Shown one piece after another: positions 6,498 through 55,756 of a DNA stretch of 64,000 nt; position 1 is the first letter of the stretch; the number at the start of each line of letters is the position of its first letter. Both the position numbers and the translations under genes were made by a program. The stretch is from an uncultured Bacteroidota bacterium (GTDB taxonomy: Bacteria > Bacteroidota > Bacteroidia > UKL13-3): contig CAIUQQ010000216.1 of NCBI GenBank assembly GCA_903901345.1, forward strand, positions 3,420-67,419, read 5' to 3'. The notes below the pieces were generated by a model that worked only from the letters and a program-made list of their open reading frames with translations, was not told the DNA's origin and made no database searches.

Positions 6498-8714
6498 ATG
6501 CCAACTAAATATCTATTCTTACTAATCACTTTTTTAAGTTTTGTTGTTTCATCATTTTCTCAAACAAATACCAGAAAATGGCGTAAAACCGAAAATGACT
6601 CTATGGAACGTTCATTGCTACTTTACTACGAGGCAAATTATATCATGGCATTGCCTATTTATGAGAAATTGTATTCAGCACATCCAAAAGAAGAATATTT
6701 GAAGTATTGTTATGGACGTTGTGCTTTATATAGGAGTGATAAGCATAATGTAGCTTTAAGTTTATTGAATGAAGTGTATCAAAAAAACAAAAAAATTGAA
6801 AATATAAAATTTGATTTAGCTAAAGCCAATCATTTTAACTTAAAATTTGACGAAGCTCTGACTCTTTTGGATGAATTTTTGGCGGACAAAAAAGTAAAAC
6901 CAGAAATAAAAAAAGAAGCTAATCAATTAAAGTTATATTGTATTAACGCTAAGAAGTTTTTTGCTAATCCAACCAATGCCAAAATTGAAAATGTTGGAAA
7001 CACAATAAATACAGTTAATGATGAGTATGTTCCTGTTATTTCTGCAGATGAATCTATTATGATATATACTTACAGAGGTACTCAAAGCATGGGTGGATTA
7101 CAAGACGCTTTCCAACAAATAGATCCTTATGGTTTTTATTATGAAGATGTTTATCAATCTAACAAAGAAAATGGACAATGGACAAAACCTAACCCCATCT
7201 CAACTATTAATACTAATTCGCACGATGCGGCCATAGCCTTAAGTGCCGATGGCCAACAATTATTTGTATATAAAGATAATGCAGACGATCATGGTGATAT
7301 TTATGTAATTTATTTTGCAAATAATGCGTGGACTGTTCCTCAAAAATTAAGAGGTGAGGTAAACTCTTATTCATGGGATGGAAGTTGTTCGATGACTGCC
7401 GATGGAAAACAATTATATTATAGTAGCGAGCGTGGTGGTGGTTATGGTGGAAAAGATATTTACAGAGCAACCTTACAACCTGATAGCACTTGGGGTCAAG
7501 TGATAAACTTGGGTGATAGTATCAATACAGCTTTGGATGATGATGCGCCTTTTATTCATCCTGATGGTGTAACATTGTTTTATAGCTCTAAAGGAAAAAA
7601 TAGTATGGGAGGATACGATATTTTTCAAGCTCGGTTAAATATATTAGATTCTTCGTTCAATCAGCCCGTAAATTTAGGTTATCCTATCAATACACCTGAT
7701 GATGACATTTACTATGTTCTTTCTGCTAATGGAGAACGAGGTTATTATGCCTCTGGAAAACAAGGTGGCTATGGCTTAAAAGATATTTATACAGTTTACC
7801 CAGGTTATGTTGGAAAAAAACCATCTTTATTTATTGTTAAAGGTAAAATTACTGTCGACTTACAGCCTGTGGAATCAAATATTACTGTGGAAATAACAAG
7901 TAAAAACAATAATCAATTTGGCGAATTTAAAAGTAATTCTTTGAATGGGAATTATTTGATTTCTTTACCTGCTGGTGGTATTTTTAATATAACTTATAAG
8001 TACAATAAATTCCCACATAAATCAATAGAAATTAACACAATGAACTTAGAAGGATATGATGAAAAGTTATATGATATAGAGTTCAATAATAAGGATACAA
8101 CAAAACCTATTGCAACTCTTGCGCCTAAAGATTCAATTGTTGCTGTTGTTGTAGTAAAAGATGTAGTAAAAGAAAAAGATGTGAAGAAGGAAGAAGTAAA
8201 GAAAGCAATTACAAAAAAAGAAGATGTAACGCAACCAATAGTAAAGAAAGAATTAGTAAAACAATCGTTTGTTAAAAAGGAAGAACCGAAACCTTCCATT
8301 GCAAAAAAAGAACAATTACCTATTGAGAAACAACCTGTTATTATAGTTCGCAAAAAAGAAGGCTCTGTTCCACGAAATGCGGCTCAACAAAAAAACAGAG
8401 TGTATAGCGAACTTTATTCTGATATCAGTGCAGAAGGATTAGAATTTAAAGTACAAATTGCTGCTTATAAATATCCTAAAAATTATTTATACATACATTT
8501 AAAAGGTTTAGGTGCTATACAAAATTTAATACTTAATGATGATATTACTCGAATTACCATCGGTGGATCATTTAACACTATTGGTAAAGCATACGAACGA
8601 TGTGAAAAGGTAATAGCTGCTGGTCAAAATGATGCCTTTGTCACAGTAATATACAAAGGAAAACGAATCTATTTAGAAGATTTAGAAACGATGGGGATTT
8701 ATGTAAAAAAGTAA
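6498..8714 (+). CDS. Exported multidomain protein: N-terminal TPR-like region, TolB-like (PD40/WD40-like) beta-propeller repeats, Lys/Glu/Val-rich low-complexity linker, C-terminal SPOR-like domain
   Basis: Signal peptide. Repeated ...DxxPxxxxDGxxLYFSS... PD40-like units (LFVYKDNADDHGDIY, LYYSSERGGGYGGKDIY, LFYSSKGKNSMGGYDIF). KKE/VKK repeats at nt ~8150-8350. C-terminal FKVQIAAYKYPKN resembles the SPOR-domain core. Confidence 0.6.
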   Translation: MPTKYLFLLITFLSFVVSSFSQTNTRKWRKTENDSMERSLLLYYEANYIMALPIYEKLYSAHPKEEYLKYCYGRCALYRSDKHNVALSLLNEVYQKNKKIENIKFDLAKANHFNLKFDEALTLLDEFLADKKVKPEIKKEANQLKLYCINAKKFFANPTNAKIENVGNTINTVNDEYVPVISADESIMIYTYRGTQSMGGLQDAFQQIDPYGFYYEDVYQSNKENGQWTKPNPISTINTNSHDAAIALSADGQQLFVYKDNADDHGDIYVIYFANNAWTVPQKLRGEVNSYSWDGSCSMTADGKQLYYSSERGGGYGGKDIYRATLQPDSTWGQVINLGDSINTALDDDAPFIHPDGVTLFYSSKGKNSMGGYDIFQARLNILDSSFNQPVNLGYPINTPDDDIYYVLSANGERGYYASGKQGGYGLKDIYTVYPGYVGKKPSLFIVKGKITVDLQPVESNITVEITSKNNNQFGEFKSNSLNGNYLISLPAGGIFNITYKYNKFPHKSIEINTMNLEGYDEKLYDIEFNNKDTTKPIATLAPKDSIVAVVVVKDVVKEKDVKKEEVKKAITKKEDVTQPIVKKELVKQSFVKKEEPKPSIAKKEQLPIEKQPVIIVRKKEGSVPRNAAQQKNRVYSELYSDISAEGLEFKVQIAAYKYPKNYLYIHLKGLGAIQNLILNDDITRITIGGSFNTIGKAYERCEKVIAAGQNDAFVTVIYKGKRIYLEDLETMGIYVKK

Positions 8715-47060: not shown

Positions 47061-47134
47061 GGCCCCGTAGCTCAGCTGGATAGAGCAACAGCCTTCTAAG
47101 CTGTGGGCCATTGGTTCGAATCCAATCGGGGTCA
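47061..47134 (+). tRNA. tRNA-Arg (anticodon TCT)
   Basis: Manual cloverleaf: acceptor GGCCCCG/CGGGGTC; D-arm GCTC-AGCTGGATA-GAGC; anticodon arm ACAGC-CTTCTAA-GCTGT; T-arm ATTGG-TTCGAAT-CCAAT; discriminator A. No encoded CCA. Confidence 0.9.
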
Positions 47135-47150
47135 CGATTAAACAACTAAA

Positions 47151-47184
47151 AAGCCTGTAAATCAATAGATTACAGGCTTTTTTC
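47151..47184 (+). terminator. Intrinsic terminator of the tRNA-Arg gene
   Basis: Perfect 10-bp inverted repeat AAGCCTGTAA...TTACAGGCTT followed by TTTTT. Confidence 0.75.
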
Positions 47185-47285
47185 ATAAAGAGGGTAAACA
47201 TAGGGTAAACATTTCGTTTTTTCCTCTCATAACGCTCACTTACTTTAATTTTCACAAGCACATAATTCATCTATGCTTATACTAT
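47170..47285 (+). promoter_or_regulatory. Repeated regulatory module, copy A: terminator 3' half, tandem direct repeat AGGGTAAACAT x2, conserved box CTCACTTACTTTAATTTTC (possible -7 promoter element)
   Basis: Shares roughly 110 nt with the second copy at 51.15 kb. The tandem decamers sit at 47191-47212 and the conserved box at 47236-47254. Confidence 0.4.
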
Positions 47286-47573
47286 GGATAATTTATGTAC
47301 TTACTATAAATACTATTTACTTTTTGATACGAAGTGTTAGCAAGTAATGCAAACGCAACGGATTAGTTAAGGACTTGAGATGGAGATATTTTAGGAGATA
47401 AAACTCAGATATTTACTATGGAGTTTTTTAATATTACATAAATTTCAGAGTAATTTATGTATTTTAGTTCTGCGATATACAAATTTATTGAAAGGTAAAG
47501 TATAGAAATAAAGTTGGTGCATATAGAAGAAGTTTGAAACATAAAGAATTAGCTAAAATTAAAAACATAGATC

Positions 47574-48551
47574 ATGAAACACAATAATTCAGATTATAAA
47601 AAAACATTTTATTACTGGCCTTTTATAGAAAATAATGTAATTGTAGCAACGCTCAAATACCCAAACTCTTTAGTAGATTATATAGAAAATTTGATTTTTG
47701 ATGTTATTGAAAAAAGAAACCTTATTGAAAAAAGAATTGTTTTCCTTGTTGACAATTTATGGACAAAACAGTTATTGCAAAGTTTATTGTTATGTCGTAA
47801 GGTTATAGATAACGATAATAATATTTTAAATACAACTAATCAAATTACTATTGTTGAAATAACAAATGATTTTGATAATGTAATTTATAAATCTATTGGC
47901 GGCAACATTAATGAAATTATTTATGAAGCAGATACATTTATTCTTATTGATTTTAATGTTTTAATGAATGATAGCAATGAACTTCTTGAACGATTAAGAG
48001 TTTATTGGAAAAATAAATTATGGATTGGAGTAGGACTAAATAATGAAAAAGACACTATTAGATTATTAAGTTTTGGCGAAGAATACATAAACTATTTGCC
48101 AGATTCCCCAGAAACGTTTGAAGGATTTGTAAATGAAGATGTATTAAAGGGGATAGAAAATATTTTAGTATCATTAGGTGATAATGAAGACTCTGGTATA
48201 TTTTCTAAACACTTTTATGGTGAGATTTTTACAGAAGAAAATGACTATACTTTAGCAATAGGAACGAGTGATTTGGTTGAGTGTGAATACGAAGAAGAAG
48301 ATGGCGAAAATGATGAAAACTATGGTGATGATGAAAAATCTTTTTGCGTTGCTATTTTAATTACTAAATATAAATTAGAGCTTTCAATAGAATTACAAGA
48401 TTATGATTGGGATGGCACAGTCTATTTGAATTATAAAATTGACTTTGAAAGTGATATTTATGAAGAAGGCGATATTGGAAAGATAGACGATTTGGTTGAA
48501 GAAATTTGCGAACGAATTAATTCTCAGAAAATAAATGTTCGATTATCTTAA
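47574..48551 (+). CDS. Hypothetical acidic protein (325 aa, D/E-rich C-terminal half)
   Basis: Long ORF at about 27% GC with no recognisable family. First gene after copy A of the module. Confidence 0.5.
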   Translation: MKHNNSDYKKTFYYWPFIENNVIVATLKYPNSLVDYIENLIFDVIEKRNLIEKRIVFLVDNLWTKQLLQSLLLCRKVIDNDNNILNTTNQITIVEITNDFDNVIYKSIGGNINEIIYEADTFILIDFNVLMNDSNELLERLRVYWKNKLWIGVGLNNEKDTIRLLSFGEEYINYLPDSPETFEGFVNEDVLKGIENILVSLGDNEDSGIFSKHFYGEIFTEENDYTLAIGTSDLVECEYEEEDGENDENYGDDEKSFCVAILITKYKLELSIELQDYDWDGTVYLNYKIDFESDIYEEGDIGKIDDLVEEICERINSQKINVRLS

Positions 48552-48662
48552 TATTACATAGGATTGAAACATACAGTGATTGAGTCAGTTTGGTGTATTA
48601 TTAAATTTATAAAAACTAAAAAACTAGCGATTTCGGATTATTAATATTTCAATAAAATTAAG

Positions 48663-49220
48663 ATGGGTGAAAAAGAAAAATACTTTGAAGAGCTAAATAT
48701 TAGCTTCGAAAAGTACCTCAAAACAAAAAGTATATATTCCTTCAAGCAAGTCAAAGGCAAAATGAAGGAGGGCGAGAATAAGTATAAATTTATTTTTAGA
48801 GATTACTATTGGTGGCATCCAAAATGGAGTGTGGCAGATTTTGAAAAATCACTTTCCGATGACGTTAAATTGTTAAAGAGTTTGTGGTCAAAATGGCGAA
48901 AAGTGCATAGAAGTTATGAGGATATGGTATTAAGCAATGAATTATATGCTTTGCATTACCAAGTGTCTTTAAATTTAACAAAAAAATGCGAACACAAATT
49001 TAAAAATGGCAAATATTATTTGGTAAAATCCAACAATAGAGTGTACTTGCATTTTGCTGAATTATTTATTGAATCAGAAAAAAAAATAGCCAGTTCAAGG
49101 CCCGAACCCACAGTAAAATCTAAACCCAAGAAATTTGATGATATCAGGGAATATGCCAAACAACTAAAAAGAGAGATTAGACCAAAAAAACGATTTGATG
49201 TCAGGCTACTCGAAGTTTAA
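48663..49220 (+). CDS. Hypothetical basic protein (185 aa)
   Basis: ORF with a Lys/Arg-rich C-terminus and no known motif. Confidence 0.45.
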   Translation: MGEKEKYFEELNISFEKYLKTKSIYSFKQVKGKMKEGENKYKFIFRDYYWWHPKWSVADFEKSLSDDVKLLKSLWSKWRKVHRSYEDMVLSNELYALHYQVSLNLTKKCEHKFKNGKYYLVKSNNRVYLHFAELFIESEKKIASSRPEPTVKSKPKKFDDIREYAKQLKREIRPKKRFDVRLLEV

Positions 49221-49247
49221 TACGATTATATAAATAAGCCAAAGAAA

Positions 49248-49466
49248 ATGGATGAAGTAGTTAAAAACGAGTTATCAAAATTAAATATGTATGAGGTTAT
49301 TTGCGCTGATGCATTAAGTCAATTACATTTAAATAACCCACAACAATTGGTGGACTTTGAAAAAGATAAAATTATATCATTGTTAAAAAGAATGTTTGAT
49401 GCAGAGAGAGAATACTTAATTGATGAATCTGATGATTATTTAGAAATTTATAAAGAAGAAATTTAA
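49248..49466 (+). CDS. Hypothetical small acidic protein (72 aa)
   Basis: Short ORF closely spaced inside the operon. Confidence 0.35.
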   Translation: MDEVVKNELSKLNMYEVICADALSQLHLNNPQQLVDFEKDKIISLLKRMFDAEREYLIDESDDYLEIYKEEI

Positions 49467-49488
49467 TTTAACTTATTCATCCTTACAA

Positions 49489-50454
49489 ATGGACAACATA
49501 AAAAAAATATTAAAGTCAAAATTAAATTGTGAATCTGTAAATTCTGAAATAGTAGAATTTGATAATGATAATGATTTTCTTCCTAAAAGAGGTAAAATAA
49601 AATTTGATTTTGTAATCAAAAACAATAATAAAATTGAGGCATTAGGTTTAAAAGTTCAGGAAACAGACCTTGACAGTTATGTAAAAGGAATTATTGAAAA
49701 AATACCAAATAATTTTGAATACCCCGTCTTTTATATATCATCAATTAATAATAGCGGTTTATTAACCAGGAATTTGTATTCTTCAGAAAAAATAATGAAT
49801 TTATCAAAGAGACCTGAATATGACATTTTTGAAAACCGTGATGTAATTTATTATGACCATTTAGATAAATTAATATTTGATATTAAAGACCTTTGCAAGG
49901 ACTTAATGAATGAAGAAGATTTTGAATTTCGTGAATTAGCAAGAGAAGTTAAAAATCTACAATGGAAATTAAAGGATAGCGAAAAAAAATATATCAACGA
50001 GAATAATAGTTTAAAGTCAGAAAATAACTATCAAAAAGAAAAGTTAGAAAAACTTGAAATAAAGATTAACAAATACATTAAAACTGATAAAACAAAAACT
50101 ATGTTTGCTATTAGTAATTGTTTGTTTATAACAGAACTAAAAGGAGCAATAAAAAAACTAAAGCTCCCGGAAAGTAATGAAATTAAGTCTGATATAAAAA
50201 CTGGTTACGGATATAATGAAAAATATTCAGTTACAAATTTCATTGATAATAATCATTTTGAATTTTATTTAGGTAATATATCAAATAAATTTTATTTAGT
50301 TCTAGAATCTTATACATGGGTTGCTGAATATAGTAGCAATGTACCCACTACTAATTATTATTATTGTTATGATGATATAAACAATCATTTTACTCTAGTT
50401 AATGGAAATGAGGTAGAGGATATTTTAACATGGATTCCGTTGAAGGATTTTTAA
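49489..50454 (+). CDS. Hypothetical coiled-coil protein (321 aa)
   Basis: Central K/E-rich coiled coil. No family recognised. Confidence 0.45.
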   Translation: MDNIKKILKSKLNCESVNSEIVEFDNDNDFLPKRGKIKFDFVIKNNNKIEALGLKVQETDLDSYVKGIIEKIPNNFEYPVFYISSINNSGLLTRNLYSSEKIMNLSKRPEYDIFENRDVIYYDHLDKLIFDIKDLCKDLMNEEDFEFRELAREVKNLQWKLKDSEKKYINENNSLKSENNYQKEKLEKLEIKINKYIKTDKTKTMFAISNCLFITELKGAIKKLKLPESNEIKSDIKTGYGYNEKYSVTNFIDNNHFEFYLGNISNKFYLVLESYTWVAEYSSNVPTTNYYYCYDDINNHFTLVNGNEVEDILTWIPLKDF

Positions 50455-50570
50455 TTTAATGCTCTTATTATTATAACCTGAAGGTCTTAATTTTATTAGA
50501 TTATATAACAAATCTTTTTTCTAAGGAATATTATTTACCTCGCATCTAAAAATATTTTAAAATTTACATT

Positions 50571-51086
50571 TTGAGTGTTAGTGCAAAAGATATTTTTTAC
50601 TGTATCGCAATTACATTTGTGGTTACATATTGTCCTTCTCTCTATGTCCCTATCCATTTACCATTTGAAGTAAATTTAATTAGTGCTTCTATCTCGATTC
50701 TGAAGTCAATTTTGGAAGAATTTATTTTTCGTTTTTTATTATTAGCCATATGTTGTAATTACTTTGGAATGTTGCAAAGTTTAATAGTATCATCATTACT
50801 TTTTTCATATGCCCATTTTGAATTTAATTGGTTTCAAATAAACTATTTTCTTTTCATTTCAAAATTTACAAGTGGTTTATATTATGGATGGGCATATCTA
50901 TCAACCCGTTCAATAATTGTCCCAATAACTATGCACATTTTGTGGAATATTGCAACTATCCCATTTGAAAAGGTTATTGCGACTGAAACTTCGGTTATCG
51001 AAGTTTATGTTAAAATAACAATTTTGATTTTGGTAGTTATTTATTATAAATATCCAGTAAAGAAGCTTTCTTTAATTCATTATTAA
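50571..51086 (+). CDS. CPBP-family (CAAX/Abi-like) intramembrane glutamic endopeptidase, short form
   Basis: EEFIFRFLLL (EExxxR), FSYAHFEFNW (FxxxH) and MHILWN (HxxxN) motifs within 4-5 TM helices. Probable TTG start. Confidence 0.65.
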   Translation: MSVSAKDIFYCIAITFVVTYCPSLYVPIHLPFEVNLISASISILKSILEEFIFRFLLLAICCNYFGMLQSLIVSSLLFSYAHFEFNWFQINYFLFISKFTSGLYYGWAYLSTRSIIVPITMHILWNIATIPFEKVIATETSVIEVYVKITILILVVIYYKYPVKKLSLIHY

Positions 51087-51147
51087 TAATCTTATATTAC
51101 AATAGAATTCAAATACAATATCAAATAAAATTCCTGATTGAAGAACT

Positions 51148-51270
51148 TTACAGGCTTTTTGATTTAATGGGGGGGAACATAGGGGGAACATTTGAATTGT
51201 TCATTACTTTTTACTCACTTACTTTAATTTTCGTTCACACATACCTTATCCATACCTATGGTATGGTTTA
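51148..51270 (+). promoter_or_regulatory. Repeated regulatory module, copy B: degenerate terminator half TTACAGGCTTTTT, tandem direct repeat GGGGGAACAT x2, conserved box CTCACTTACTTTAATTTTC
   Basis: Aligns with copy A. Both half-sites carry the same TA to GG change relative to copy A. Decamers at 51171-51191 and conserved box at 51214-51232. Confidence 0.4.
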
Positions 51271-51480
51271 TCTATATACAAACTACGTTAAAAACTTTCA
51301 AAATTATACAAAACATGGTGATGTGATGCAATCGCATCACTCCTGATTAAAATGCTTTTTACTTGATATACTTTTGTATAGTCAAACCATTTCTATTCGC
51401 TATATGAATGAAGTTTGATGATTTTGGAGACTGACTGCGCAGCAGTTGACAAAATGTAAATCAATCTAAAAATTAAAAAA

Positions 51481-52230
51481 ATGGCTCAACAAAAAGGCAT
51501 TATAAAGCTAAAAGGAAAAATCGGAGATATTTCCTTTTACAAAACACAAGACGGCCATTTGGCTCGTGAAAAAGGAGGAGTAGATGCTTCACGCATCGCT
51601 AACGATCCTGCTTTTATTCGCACCCGTGAAAATGGTGTAGAATTCGGTTCATCTGCTAGTTCAGGCAAATTGCTAAGAAGTTCATTAAGAAGTATGTTAA
51701 TGACTGCTGGCGATAACAGAGTAACGGCTCGATTAACCAAAACAATGACTGATATTAAAAATTTGGATGCAACATCAGTGCGAGGAAAAAGAACTGTGGG
51801 AATTGCTATTGCTTTAGCGCCAGCTAAAGCGTTGTTAAAAGGTTTTAATTTTAATAATAAGGCAATATTAGGCAGCATCTTATTTAAACCTTATGCAGTA
51901 GCAACAGCCACAGGAATCATTACCATTACAGGACTCGTTCCACTTACTGATATTGCTTTTCCGGAAGGTGCAACGCATGTTAGTTTTAAAAGCTCTTGGG
52001 CAAAGGTGGATTTTACAAATAATGTTTCGGATGTTAAATTATCGAATGTTGTTAATTTGCCAATTAATGCGGTATCGGCTAACGTTGTTTTAACTCCAAC
52101 TGCAGCAGCTGTAGGAACAGGAATAAACTTGTTTGTATTGCAACTGGAGTTTTTTCAATTGGTTAATGCTATTCAGTACACCATGAAAAACGGAACATAC
52201 AATGCGTTATGCATTGTTGAGGTAAGCTAA
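51481..52230 (+). CDS. Hypothetical protein (249 aa, Ala/Thr/Val-rich, beta-rich)
   Basis: First gene after copy B of the module. Composition resembles a phage-structural protein, but no family was recognised. Confidence 0.5.
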   Translation: MAQQKGIIKLKGKIGDISFYKTQDGHLAREKGGVDASRIANDPAFIRTRENGVEFGSSASSGKLLRSSLRSMLMTAGDNRVTARLTKTMTDIKNLDATSVRGKRTVGIAIALAPAKALLKGFNFNNKAILGSILFKPYAVATATGIITITGLVPLTDIAFPEGATHVSFKSSWAKVDFTNNVSDVKLSNVVNLPINAVSANVVLTPTAAAVGTGINLFVLQLEFFQLVNAIQYTMKNGTYNALCIVEVS

Positions 52231-52234
52231 ACAG

Positions 52235-52651
52235 ATGGAATTATTACTCATTAGAACATATGATGTTGTAGGGATCAATGGCACGCTTTATAATTGTGAA
52301 AAAAGTATCTGCCATACGATTGAATTACCCTGGAAAGAAAATCAAAAAATGATTTCCTGTATTCCAGAAGGTCGTTATGAAATTGTAAAAAGATATAATG
52401 CCAAATTTAAATGGCATTTCATACTTATGAACGTGCCAAATAGGTCCTTTATTTTAATTCATCCGGCTAATGATGCGCTTAAAGAATTGAAAGGGTGCAT
52501 TGCACCAGTTTTAGTTTTAGCAGCAGCAGGAAAAGGATATGAATCAAAAAAAGCATTAAAGAGTTTAATTTCTATTATTTACCCTTTACTGGATCAAAAA
52601 GAAAAAATTTATCTAACTATTAAATCAAAACCAAACAATGAGACTCATTGA
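52235..52651 (+). CDS. Small conserved Cys/His protein with a YkuD/L,D-transpeptidase-like motif (possibly the DUF5675 family); putative cell-wall-active enzyme
   Basis: ILIHPANDALKELKGCIAPV resembles the H...(S/T)xGC(I/V) catalytic signature of L,D-transpeptidase-fold enzymes. Additional conserved Cys in CEKSICHTIELPW and SCIPEGRY. Confidence 0.4.
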   Translation: MELLLIRTYDVVGINGTLYNCEKSICHTIELPWKENQKMISCIPEGRYEIVKRYNAKFKWHFILMNVPNRSFILIHPANDALKELKGCIAPVLVLAAAGKGYESKKALKSLISIIYPLLDQKEKIYLTIKSKPNNETH

Positions 52652-52883
52652 CAGATTAAAAGCACCAACACCTAAGTTTTTTAAAGTATTAAGAAATATT
52701 GGTTTAGGATTAGCCGCTGCAGGCGGTGTAATAGTTGCATCGCCAATTGCCATCCCTACAATTATTATAACCATAGGTGGTTATTTAATTGTAGCAGGAA
52801 GTGTAGCAACTGCAGTAAGCCAAATAGTAACAACTACTGAAGGCGATGCTTCGACAAGCACTGCAAACCAAAAAAATAACTGA
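52638..52883 (+). CDS. Small two-TM membrane protein (holin-like topology, 81 aa)
   Basis: Two hydrophobic helices (IGLGLAAAGGVIVASPIAI / IIITIGGYLIVAGSVATAV) and a polar tail. Overlaps the upstream gene by 14 nt. Confidence 0.45.
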   Translation: MRLIDRLKAPTPKFFKVLRNIGLGLAAAGGVIVASPIAIPTIIITIGGYLIVAGSVATAVSQIVTTTEGDASTSTANQKNN

Positions 52884-52910
52884 GTATTAATTATTAAAAT
52901 CATTATTAAA

Positions 52911-53249
52911 ATGACTGAAGAAAAAAATCAAATCGAAAAAACTCAAACTATTGTTGAGTTACAAGTTTTGCCATGTGCTAACGAAGTGGCACCAGCAAAA
53001 CAAAATGTTGAGGTATTAAACCACGAAAATCAAGATGATCCACCATGTGGTAAAATCATCTTAACAGTTACTTGTAACGGATCAAAATTAACTAAAGCAG
53101 ATTCTGGACTCGTTGAAGAATTTCAGGAAGAAGTTTGGGTGACAGTAAAAACAACAAAAGCGGATGCAGGTATTGTACCAAATATTGATTTAAGTGTTCA
53201 TGAAAGATGCACAACAAAAATGACAAAGGCTGATTCCGGTATTGCTTAA
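52911..53249 (+). CDS. Hypothetical acidic protein with three TKADSG-type repeats and four Cys (112 aa)
   Basis: Repeats LTKADSGLV / TTKADAGIV / MTKADSGIA. No signal peptide. Confidence 0.45.
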   Translation: MTEEKNQIEKTQTIVELQVLPCANEVAPAKQNVEVLNHENQDDPPCGKIILTVTCNGSKLTKADSGLVEEFQEEVWVTVKTTKADAGIVPNIDLSVHERCTTKMTKADSGIA

Positions 53250-53259
53250 AAACTAAATT

Positions 53260-53445
53260 ATGTCAACACATCATAACATAGAAAGCGGAACTATCATGGG
53301 CACTGTTTCAGGAACAGTCTTAACTGTATTAGTGAACATAGGTTCATCGGATATTATTAAAACAGTTGTCCTTGCTGTACTTGGTGCAGTGGTTAGTTTT
53401 GGAGTTTCTTTATTGTTAAAGTGGTTACTCCGAAAGTTTAAGTAA
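53260..53445 (+). CDS. Small two-TM membrane protein with a basic C-terminus (holin/antiholin-like, 61 aa)
   Basis: Hydrophobic helices VSGTVLTVLVNIG and VVLAVLGAVVSFGVSLLL, followed by KWLLRKFK. Confidence 0.4.
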   Translation: MSTHHNIESGTIMGTVSGTVLTVLVNIGSSDIIKTVVLAVLGAVVSFGVSLLLKWLLRKFK

Positions 53446-53462
53446 TTTTAAATTAATCTTTA

Positions 53463-53496
53463 AAGCCTTGCACAAAATGTGCAAGGCTTTTTTTTG
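53463..53496 (+). terminator. Strong intrinsic terminator ending the 51.5-53.4 kb operon
   Basis: 11-bp perfect inverted repeat AAGCCTTGCAC-aaaat-GTGCAAGGCTT followed by TTTTTTT. Confidence 0.85.
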
Positions 53497-53497
53497 A

Positions 53498-53920
53498 TTA
53501 CTTTTTTAAATATTTATAAAATAAAGCTTTGCGCAATTGCATTAAATAATCTAATTGTTGATTTAGATTAGTTTGCAAATTTTCAATTTGTGCTAATGTA
53601 TTTTGAACATCAGAAAATGAACGATTGCCGGTATTAACTGAGTTTAAAGTTTCTTCAATTACATCAATAACATCACCTAAGCGAATATATTCGATAACTG
53701 AGCCTTTTAGATGTTTACGAAATAAACGAAGCTCCCATAAGCCTAATAATAAGAAATAGTAAAACTCTTTTTCTTCTTTATTATCTGCCAAAAACACAAA
53801 TGAATTGCATACATAGTGATTAAATGGTTTACCAGAATTTAGACCTTTGTTTAAAATAAAGAAATGTTGTTGTTGATACATTTTACCTGATTTGTGTGTT
53901 TTGATTTTTGATTTTAACAT
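53498..53920 (-). CDS. Hypothetical protein with a C-terminal coiled coil (140 aa)
   Basis: ORF convergent with the terminator. A weak resemblance to the coiled-coil spacer of HsdS-like specificity subunits (AQIENLQTNLNQQLDYLMQLRKALF) is speculative. Confidence 0.35.
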   Translation of the reverse strand: MLKSKIKTHKSGKMYQQQHFFILNKGLNSGKPFNHYVCNSFVFLADNKEEKEFYYFLLLGLWELRLFRKHLKGSVIEYIRLGDVIDVIEETLNSVNTGNRSFSDVQNTLAQIENLQTNLNQQLDYLMQLRKALFYKYLKK

Positions 53921-54289
53921 GATGATTTTTTTAAAGGGTTTGTATCCCTTTTTTCATCTTGTGTTTTGAACCTGTTTACTACTAATTTGAAAACAAAGAA
54001 AAAACCCAAAAAAACGAGCTAAATAAAAGCCCGAAAAAAATGAAAAAAGAAAGCATTTTGAAAAGGCTGAACACTGAGGTTGCCAAGATTTTTGACAAAA
54101 AAAATACTACCTGAATGCGGCAGTATTAATAAACCTTTTACCTTAAATAATGCCGCATGAAGTGTGGAGATTATTTTTGCAAAACCCGAAGGGCTTGACC
54201 TTGCAATCCGAAAGTGGAAAGACTTAAATTGCGCCTCTTTTTTTATTTTGGAATAATTTACCTGTTACTGCATTCTATTTTTAAAATAA

Positions 54290-54830
54290 ACATCAATTGA
54301 AATGTAGAGGTAAAAGCGCCCGCGGCGTGGGAAGGAAAACGGTTGCAAAAAATGAAGTGAGGTACGAACAAAATGATTTGCAATCCGTTGTGCGGCGAGC
54401 CACCTGCGAGTGGAGAGAGGGTGTGCAGCATGGGAGCTTGAGGTACGAAAGCGGATGCAAACTATGTTGCAAGTGTGGCAAAAAGCCCCCTACATTTCCC
54501 CCAGAGGGGGAAGGCAAAAAGGCATGCCACACGATAGCAACACAAGTGCATTTTTGTTGCAATGATTTTATTGCGCTACAAAACAAAAATGCACGAAGCC
54601 CGAGCGACTATGCAGGCGAGCTGAAAAGTTGGTAGCCGGTGGACTGAAAGTGGCTGAGATGAATGAAGTGCAATGGCACCCAGTGGAAGTAGTGAAACGG
54701 ATGTAACGGGTGAATAATGGAGCGAAATGAATGAAGTGGCTTGAAGGACAGGATAGGCTACCGTGACGAAAGCACTGTGCAACGAGCAAAAAATGTGACA
54801 AACTAAAAACCCGAAGGGCAAAATAGCTTA
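54290..54830. ncRNA. Candidate large structured non-coding RNA or other non-coding element: GC-rich (>50% GC) island with stable hairpins and internal direct repeats; strand undetermined
   Basis: GC content jumps sharply against a roughly 30% background. Both strands show stop-free ORFs translating to low-complexity nonsense. 13-bp perfect stem GTGCATTTTTGTT...AACAAAAATGCAC (54546-54596). CCCCCAGAGGGGG hairpin (54489-54501). Many GNRA-like GAAA loops. Direct repeats TGAGGTACGAA x2 and AATGAATGAAGTG x2. Flanked by AAACCCGAAGGGC at 54182 and 54808. Confidence 0.3.
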
Positions 54831-55222
54831 TGCTAAAAGCCTTGAAAAGACTTAGTTAAAGCATGTGCTATTTTGGTTTGGCGCAATTTGTTGCTTGCAC
54901 CTGCTGAGGAACACCACTTTACCTTTTTCTTATTGAAATAGACGACTCAAACTGCAATATTAATTATAGTATTAAATGATGCACTTTATTGAATTGTACT
55001 AATTTCAGTTTCAAGTATTTTCACTTGAACTCGCAATTTTTTTTACTGTTTCTTAGTACTGCTTCGTTTGTAAGTTTATCTCCATTGCTAGTTTAAAGAA
55101 TAACTGCTAAAAAAATAAGACTATGCGTTAAAAAAAAGGGTAGGCAAGAATTTTAATTGAATGTGCATGCTAAAGTAAACTATTAAAAAAAATTAGTTTA
55201 AAAGATTTTTCATTTTAATATA

Positions 55223-55756
55223 TTAATCAAATTTCTCATTATTGAAATGTAATTTTATTATTTTATCTCTGAAAGTAATATATTCTTCCTTTGGGCGATT
55301 GCGGATGGCAAATTTCAAATAGAGAAGTGCCTCCTTATAATTATTTAATTTATAATAAATGCAAGCACACTTGAAATTACAATAATCGTCCCACGAATTA
55401 GATTTTAAAACTGAATAATAATCATTGATTGCATTTTTATATTCAGATAATTGTTCATAACAATTCCCTCTATTAAGATAATACTCTCTAATAGCATTCA
55501 ATGCAATAGCACTTGTAAAATTATTAATTGCCATTCGATAGTCATTATCATAATAATAATTTAAACCGATTGAGTTATAATTCATTGCCTCAGATTCGTC
55601 ATTTTTAGTAATTTTATTTACTTGATTCTTCTCTTTAATTATATTTAAATCTTCAAGTTTACTAACCGATAAGCCAAATAAACCCTTTACGATTTCTGCT
55701 AAAAATATTTTATAAAATATAATAGCAAATCCTACAATAACTATTATTCCAATCAT
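55223..55756 (-). CDS. Membrane-anchored TPR-repeat protein (177 aa)
   Basis: N-terminal TM helix (MIGIIVIVGFAIIFYKIFLA) and TPR-like repeats (YYLNRGNCYEQLSEYKNAINDY, CIYYKLNNYKEALLYLKFA). Confidence 0.55.
   Translation of the reverse strand: MIGIIVIVGFAIIFYKIFLAEIVKGLFGLSVSKLEDLNIIKEKNQVNKITKNDESEAMNYNSIGLNYYYDNDYRMAINNFTSAIALNAIREYYLNRGNCYEQLSEYKNAINDYYSVLKSNSWDDYCNFKCACIYYKLNNYKEALLYLKFAIRNRPKEEYITFRDKIIKLHFNNEKFD

Follow-up and report, generated by a model that had tools for sequence, protein, structure and literature searches.

Phage holin-endolysin cassettes place a wall-degrading enzyme beside small membrane proteins, in tightly coupled genes that end at a terminator. In the P2/P4 hotspots, tRNA-linked islands and tycheposon-like islands, the conserved flanking genes adjoin a tRNA, and highly variable defence cargo is inserted between genes at defined points. 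Large, highly structured RNAs such as GOLLD, ROOL and OLE, with strong covariation, occur on mobile DNA near tRNA genes. Here, we analysed a locus of an uncultured Bacteroidota bacterium that resembles all of these. It lies in a stretch of 64,000 nucleotides of contig CAIUQQ010000216.1 (GenBank assembly GCA_903901345.1), hereafter the window, to which all coordinates without a locus name refer, and centres on a five-gene operon that starts with the gene for a 249-aa protein, P249. The five genes are part of a widespread, uncharacterised Bacteroidota mobile-element module, which sits where an anti-phage defence island borders its tRNA, and not a phage lysis cassette. The context of the operon, namely tRNA-linked islands and plasmids, a defence hotspot and a large structured RNA, had been overlooked in a preliminary description of this DNA.

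The operon occupies the plus strand and converges on a gene of the DUF6943 family, with which it has a terminator in common:

51481-52230, plus strand: P249 gene, 249 aa, hallmark of the module
52235-52651, plus strand: DUF5675 gene, 138 aa, optional component
52638-52883, plus strand: TM80 gene, 81 aa, conserved peptide with two transmembrane (TM) segments (2-TM peptide)
52911-53249, plus strand: gene of the TKADSG-motif protein, 112 aa, acidic, optional
53260-53445, plus strand: TM60 gene, 61 aa, conserved 2-TM peptide with a basic C-terminal tail
53462-53496, no strand: bidirectional intrinsic terminator, common to the operon and the convergent DUF6943 gene
53498-53920, minus strand: DUF6943 gene, 140 aa, convergent conserved partner

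Successive genes of the operon are separated by a 4-nt gap, a 14-nt overlap, a 27-nt gap and a 10-nt gap. All five tightly spaced reading frames were present as previously described, and the strong terminator reported with them is a perfect 13-bp hairpin followed by a T-run. Because every gene has conserved homologues that keep the same order in many genomes, the operon is not a chance arrangement. Hydropathy analysis revealed neither a signal peptide nor a TM segment in the 249-, 138- and 112-aa proteins. The likeness to a holin-endolysin cassette lies in the signal-less DUF5675 protein, a predicted wall peptidase, beside small 2-TM proteins, in the tight coupling and in the terminal hairpin. 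However, the operon is not in a phage, its partner genes were not found in phages and it encodes no spanin. Moreover, the enzyme is optional here, and the membrane peptides and P249 form the conserved part.

The composition of the module was surveyed in 85 loci, 80 of them fetched from species-representative genomes, with P249 as bait. The recurring order is P249, DUF5675 (optional), a 2-TM peptide of about 80 aa, the TKADSG protein (optional), a 2-TM peptide of about 60 aa and, on the opposite strand, DUF6943. Besides P249 (85/85, as the bait), a small divergent helix-turn-helix (HTH)-like gene of 62-67 aa was found in about 70 loci, the 80-aa peptide in about 50, the 60-aa peptide in about 44, DUF6943 in about 43, DUF5675 in 10 (about 12%) and the TKADSG protein in about 6. 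Many loci of Chitinophagales hold just the HTH gene, P249 and DUF6943, with no TM peptides. At one locus (L016:4592-12698), two complete modules lie head to head, each with its own copy of the RNA described below and with the HTH genes back to back.

The preliminary description had proposed a single lysis or toxin/immunity unit centred on the 138-aa enzyme. This proposal was not supported: DUF5675 is absent from about 75 of the 85 related modules, and the 2-TM peptides track P249 and not the enzyme. As regards lysis, P249, TM80, TM60 and DUF6943 had no match in 50,697 phage records (INPHARED), and P249 had none in IMG/VR either. As regards toxin and immunity, neither a linkage to a type VI secretion system (T6SS) nor a periplasmic immunity protein was seen. 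DUF5675 is also absent from locus L011, although its P249 is 80% identical to that of the window. Its presence in 10 of 85 loci and its absence from L011 therefore identify the enzyme as an accessory inserted into a module in which P249 is the constant gene. In place of DUF5675, L011 has a terminator-like hairpin between the genes for P249 and the 80-aa peptide (L011:10750-10826), which points to attenuated read-through into the genes for the membrane peptides.

The 138-aa protein belongs to the Pfam family DUF5675 (PF18925), whose gathering threshold it passes with 103.4 bits (cut-off 26.7; residues 5-115 on positions 2-112 of the 114-position model), and it also matches phrog_1501. It contains ILIHPANDALKELKGCIAP. 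Across 26 DUF5675 homologues, C42, H61, H76, G87 and C88 are invariant, and His76...Gly87-Cys88 forms a conserved catalytic-type motif of the YkuD/L,D-transpeptidase kind. When the AlphaFold model (pLDDT 80) was searched with Foldseek, the best PDB matches were Bacillus subtilis YkuD and mycobacterial L,D-transpeptidases, at weak scores (E 0.06-0.4, TM-score about 0.4). The family assignment, the invariant H...GC and these weak top matches support the YkuD-like Cys/His enzyme of the preliminary description. From sequence and model, the protein would be a signal-less, YkuD-fold peptidoglycan L,D-peptidase of the phage-lysin type. It has the His...Gly-Cys motif in common with the YkuD/L,D-transpeptidases (MEROPS C82) and Tlde1, but is much smaller, with a shorter His-Cys spacing (12 residues), does not pass the Pfam cut-offs of YkuD and Tlde1, and has neither an export signal nor a T6SS context.

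Relatives of DUF5675 were found in 136 phage records; their identity reaches 39%, over most of the protein's length. The carriers include Vibrio, Cellulophaga, Salinibacter and crAss-like phages and some microvirus genomes. DUF5675 is an already known DUF. The crAss-like phage records label the homologues 'transpeptidase catalytic domain protein', and a 2026 preprint, on structural grounds, sorts the family with the C82 peptidases and treats it as a candidate domain of lysins ('C82-like'). In Salinibacter phages the DUF5675 gene is followed by genes for TM proteins. The pairing of enzyme and small membrane proteins that had been likened to phage lysis modules is thus seen in phages, but the operon itself is not phage-borne.

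Hydropathy analysis predicted two hydrophobic helices each for TM80 and TM60. TM80 homologues, 47-88% identical, were found in about 50 of the 85 loci and on a Marivirga plasmid. Of the three GSKLTKAD[SA]G-type motifs in the TKADSG protein, two are invariant and one is variable; in addition to the genome loci, the protein occurs on 3 metagenome contigs, independently of DUF5675. A role as precursor of a ribosomally synthesised and post-translationally modified peptide (graspetide) was considered and rejected, given that no ATP-grasp or other maturase is present and that the gene occurs independently of DUF5675.

P249 is strongly basic (net charge +12) and belongs to a very large family. Searches yielded homologues numbering 3801 and 6893, as well as 4052 clusters at the 50% identity level (E<=1e-3). 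The named homologues are all from Bacteroidota and nearly all 249-252 aa long, and the clusters span Flavobacteriia, Chitinophagia, Cytophagia, Sphingobacteriia and Saprospiria. P249 had no match in Pfam, NCBIfam, PHROG or PADLOC. Its structural model (pLDDT 82) shows a conserved N-terminus of low confidence, a helical middle and a confident Ig-like beta-sandwich at the C-terminus, without a significant fold match in the PDB or among viral structures (BFVD). P249 is a predicted cytoplasmic protein, possibly one that binds nucleic acids. A jelly-roll capsid of a small ssDNA provirus was rejected in view of the Ig-like sandwich and helices, the lack of a viral fold match and the absence of a Rep, and because the neighbouring proteins of about 313-318 aa vary between loci. 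These neighbours had no Pfam match and by eye resemble PIN-like or HNH-like cargo. The idea that P249 is a tyrosine, serine or HUH recombinase found no motif or fold support on inspection of the alignments and the model.

The convergent partner passes the gathering threshold of DUF6943 (PF22105; 136.3 bits, cut-off 27). It has a coiled-coil-like C-terminal segment and a weak match to type I specificity subunits (HsdS; PADLOC Specificity_I, E 0.012), and may be a DNA-recognition protein. In the literature searched, DUF6943 is unmentioned and the papers that mention DUF5675 do not describe the P249 module. P249, the architecture of the module, the tRNA sites and plasmid backbones that it uses, and the structured RNA appear to be undescribed.

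Upstream of the operon, the window contains a tRNA gene, a duplicated leader and an inserted set of genes:

47061-47135, plus strand: tRNA-Arg(tct) (ARAGORN and Rfam), island-side anchor
47136-47400, plus strand: leader copy A, diverged duplicate of the left end of the module, with the tandem motif GGGTAAACATAGGGTAAACAT at 47192-47212
47574-51086, plus strand: inserted gene set of about 4 kb, encoding proteins of 325, 185, 72 and 321 aa and a 171-aa Rce1/CAAX-like protease
51147-51480, plus strand: leader copy B, conserved left end and 5' region of the operon

The 'module copy B' of the preliminary description corresponds to this leader duplication (47136-47400 versus 51147-51480). Copy A is 70% identical to 51148-51285 (blastn), the duplication is also seen in an alignment, and the tandem motif GGGNRAACATAGGKNNAACAT is present in both copies (at 47192 and 51171), with two matches in the entire window and 0 expected. 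In copy B, the tandem motif (51171-51191) is followed by a hairpin (51250-51266) and the palindrome GATGCAATCGCATC at about 51324-51337. The published promoter consensus of Bacteroidetes is TAnnTTTG; TACTTTTG at 51369-51376 resembles the Bacteroidetes -7 box and may belong to the operon's promoter. Together, the two copies bracket the insert of about 4 kb between tRNA-Arg and the module. The 325-aa protein of the insert has a weak NB-ARC match, and none of its five genes matched PADLOC.

This insert is missing in loci L093, L095 and L096, where the module directly follows the tRNA. From 51147 onward, the DNA of the window is 97-98% identical in these loci and P249 is identical. The near-identical modules stand downstream of different tRNA genes: tRNA-Met (L093), tRNA-Lys (L095 and L096) and tRNA-Arg (window). 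Other loci of the tRNA type use tRNA-Asp, Phe, Glu or Cys, so that seven identities are represented overall. In these loci the distance from the tRNA to the P249 gene is constant at about 365-440 nt, with 365 nt for the nearly identical modules, and leader copy B is conserved. Modules behind tRNA genes were seen at L093:9561-9635 and L095:1960-2033 (tRNA positions) and in L011, L012, L001, L014, L024, L037 and L041. The homology break lies about 50 nt downstream of the tRNA, in or past its terminator hairpin, and not within the tRNA itself.

Further loci also bear marks of mobility. Three Ferruginibacter assemblies have an identical DUF5675 and module DNA of 95-97% identity in different flanks, and the left boundary is abrupt, at a sequence like a tRNA 3' end. 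In L006, L007 and L008, the left edge of a common element of 5.7 kb lies around position 6575 and is likewise abrupt; the element opens with the reverse complement of a sequence that resembles the end of a tRNA on its 3' side (...AATCCCTCTCTCTCCGCCA), possibly what is left of an att site. On plasmids, P249 and its HTH partner are carried by seven replicons of Fulvitalea axinellae; in the four inspected (L098-L101: pFA12, pFA8, pFA10 and pFA5), the pair lies a few kb from rep and/or parAB. Between three Fulvitalea plasmids, P249 is 97-99% identical and the adjoining HTH proteins just 56-68%. The Rep proteins of the Fulvitalea plasmids have no relatives in the island loci. On the Marivirga plasmid p1 (L097), P249 and the HTH partner are accompanied by a DUF5675 fragment and the 80-aa peptide.

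Downstream, the module adjoins defence genes. In the window, its downstream neighbours are a TPR gene and the genes MzaB to MzaE of an Mza system. A random 135 of the 297 downstream neighbour proteins (80 loci) match 131 different Pfam families, many of them related to defence. Among these are GajA/AAA_15-21, AriA, PtuA, Old, type I and III restriction enzymes, ThsB-TIR, Piwi (pAgo), PycC, Mokosh and HEC-01. The five operon proteins themselves had no match in PADLOC-DB 2.0. Cargo enters at three points: between the tRNA and P249, as in the window; between the 60-aa gene and DUF6943; and, most commonly, between a conserved non-coding part 1 and a GC-rich RNA element:

53921-54255, no strand: conserved non-coding part 1, region upstream of DUF6943 (nhmmer)
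54255-54306, no strand: cargo insertion point, empty in the window
54307-54923, plus strand: structured RNA candidate of about 620 nt, on the same strand as the P249 operon

The last insertion point holds an interval of 0.3-3.6 kb in L001, L011, L014, L015, L018, L024, L036 and L041. In its conserved flanking genes by a tRNA, its variable defence cargo and its defined insertion points, the locus resembles the P2/P4 hotspots, tRNA-linked islands and tycheposon-like islands. It differs from them in that the conserved P249 unit has no integrase, primase or other known mobility gene, its backbone genes (P249, HTH-like, DUF6943) are uncharacterised, and it includes a large structured RNA.

The 3' domain of this RNA has a GC content of 0.43, and the surrounding 1 kb has 0.41, against a background of about 0.30. 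From 13 copies, RNAalifold predicted 113 pairs; compensatory double changes occur in 61 of these. The invariant G-U pairs are compatible with the plus strand only, the terminal helix pairs 5' GGUAAA with UUUACC 3', and the minimum-free-energy z-score is -4.4. Within the 3' domain, 94% of the cells pair, compared with 35-44% in slid controls, and 32 of 48 pairs show double changes, compared with 3-12 in those controls. The element had no Rfam 15 family: in the window, the tRNA alone reached a gathering score, and an E-value scan of 53900-55250 returned chance-level matches only. Interpretation of the GC-rich region at 54.3-54.9 kb as coding was rejected because open reading frames are inconsistent between loci of 95-97% identity, and tmRNA, RNase P or a group II intron because neither ARAGORN nor Rfam gave a match.

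A covariance model detected the RNA in 20 of 80 sources, including L001:12955-13624, L012:12492-13152 and L016 (two copies), and a metagenome scan added at least 42 further copies. Most metagenome copies with enough upstream sequence carry P249 or DUF6943; three (L166, L198 and L201) have neither within 4-11 kb. In many loci, variable gene cargo is inserted just upstream of the RNA 5' end. Part 1 ends in a degenerate, shortened copy (54181-54270) of the RNA 3' domain (54806-54925). Weak covariance-model matches place a 3'-domain remnant just after DUF6943 in L056, L057, L058, L061, L074, L076 and L084-L086, and modules of Chitinophagales keep such a remnant where the full RNA was not detected. 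In its length of about 600 nt, its high degree of structure, its strong covariation and its position on mobile DNA near tRNA genes, the RNA is comparable to GOLLD, ROOL and OLE; it differs in having no Rfam 15 family and in being restricted to Bacteroidota, and it was not found in viral contigs with the search pattern used. It may represent a new class of large structured RNA linked to mobile DNA.

Of the explanations considered, we tentatively prefer that the operon is a border or backbone unit of a Bacteroidota mobile-element family, comprising tRNA-linked islands and plasmids, that carries an accessory lysin unit. P249 is the constant hallmark, and the other four operon genes would be add-ons co-transcribed with it: the two holin-like 2-TM peptides in about 60% of modules, DUF5675 and the TKADSG protein each in a minority. 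Once a trigger induced the operon, the 2-TM peptides could permeabilise the inner membrane and so let DUF5675 reach the murein, where Cys88 and His76 would attack the bond at the L,D (mDAP) centre. Plausibly, this trio breaches the envelope as an accessory layer on a non-viral backbone module. A local or whole-cell breach might then serve the element, through suicide of the infected cell or through release or transfer of the element. The analysis itself establishes the gene content, conservation and optionality of the module, its mobility and defence-island setting, and the family and catalytic motif of the enzyme; the activities on membrane and wall, the trigger and the part played by P249 are inferred from these.

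Several observations weigh against this explanation. DUF5675 matches the YkuD fold weakly (best E 0.06), the protein did not match the YkuD Pfam model (PF03734) at E<=1, and phmmer and profile searches of PDB sequences returned nothing relevant. The holin-like peptides are real and conserved, and their topology fits; because they match no known holin family (Pfam, PHROG; phage records), the term describes topology only. P249 is 66-86% conserved across classes, which is unusual for defence genes and for cargo. Since most modules lack DUF5675 and many in Chitinophagales lack the TM peptides, breaching the envelope is not the core function of the module. Just 6 of 85 loci have a tyrosine recombinase within +/-10 kb, no recombinase is linked consistently, and in tRNA-type loci no tRNA-derived repeat of at least 15 nt was found downstream in the fetched DNA, which stops short of the far ends of the islands. 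A study that uses small serine recombinases to mark defence loci (PMC13552941) was not relevant, as no serine recombinase is present.

A possible, though on balance unlikely, alternative is that the module itself is an anti-phage abortive-infection system, in which P249 would sense infection and the cell would be killed, in the manner of RexAB, through damage to membrane and wall by the 2-TM peptides, alone or together with DUF5675. Like other such systems, it would simply be located in defence islands. The module always adjoins defence genes, its combination of a cytoplasmic protein with small membrane effectors and swappable extras resembles known abortive-infection architecture, and DUF5675 and the TKADSG gene, being optional, look like modular effectors. 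RexAB pairs a cytoplasmic sensor with a membrane effector; here too, a locus in a defence island encodes a cytoplasmic protein together with small membrane proteins, but there is no homology. Against this reading, the module occupies a fixed border beside a tRNA or att-like remnant instead of varying in place within the cargo, and P249 lies in the rep/par backbones of at least 4 co-resident plasmids. In many loci P249 has no TM partner at all, it is far more conserved than typical defence proteins, and PADLOC gave no match.

More doubtful is a reading that concerns the whole unit of about 3.7 kb (tRNA or HTH gene, P249, TM peptides, DUF6943 and RNA). It could be an undescribed kind of Bacteroidota mobile element or ribonucleoprotein system that transfers between tRNA loci and plasmids and takes up defence cassettes at a fixed site next to the RNA gene, with no recognisable recombinase. 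If this were true, P249 and/or DUF6943, possibly with the RNA, would provide a new integration, capture or maintenance activity.

We consider it improbable that the operon is a secretion unit of holin and peptidoglycan hydrolase, similar to type 10 secretion, that exports P249 or the TKADSG protein. Both proteins are signal-less and probably co-transcribed with holin-like peptides and a putative wall peptidase, and P249 has an Ig-like C-terminal domain. Yet many modules have P249 without the TM peptides or the enzyme, the latter being restricted to the small minority given above, and the basic composition and plasmid-backbone location of P249 suggest an intracellular role.

A Tlde1-type pair, in which DUF5675 would be an antibacterial effector with L,D-peptidase activity and the TM peptides would confer immunity, is very improbable. 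The enzyme has a YkuD-like motif and a putative YkuD-like fold, a TssD fragment lies near locus L003, and a Tlde1_dom match exists at E 0.05; however, its 14.5 bits are below the Pfam cut-off of 30.1. T6SS genes, PAAR and Rhs domains and a periplasmic immunity protein are all missing from the neighbourhood, and the TM peptides are kept in modules that lack the supposed toxin.

Still less credence is due to the non-standard lysis cassette of a cryptic prophage that the preliminary description had put first. The phage relatives of DUF5675, followed by TM proteins in Salinibacter phages, and the holin-like topology of TM60 speak for it. Against this, Pfam and PHROG scans found no phage structural or replication genes nearby, the partner genes are absent from the phage records and P249 from IMG/VR as well, and the enzyme is dispensable and not inherited together with the holin-like peptides (10/85 versus about 44-50/85). 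Finally, a housekeeping peptidoglycan remodeller (L,D-transpeptidase or carboxypeptidase) with unrelated neighbours, which the YkuD-like motif would allow, is the least probable of all, as DUF5675 has no signal peptide or lipobox, is distributed as an accessory, mobile gene and has relatives in phages.

The finding is thus tentatively read as a mobile-element backbone at a defence hotspot that carries a lysin-like unit. It places DUF5675, which is currently mined as a lysin, in a non-phage cellular setting. P249 is among the larger protein families without any annotation, and it marks the borders of mobile defence islands as well as plasmid backbones. It can be used as bait for new defence systems of Bacteroidota and, given a conserved unit without a known recombinase, offers a handle on how these islands move.

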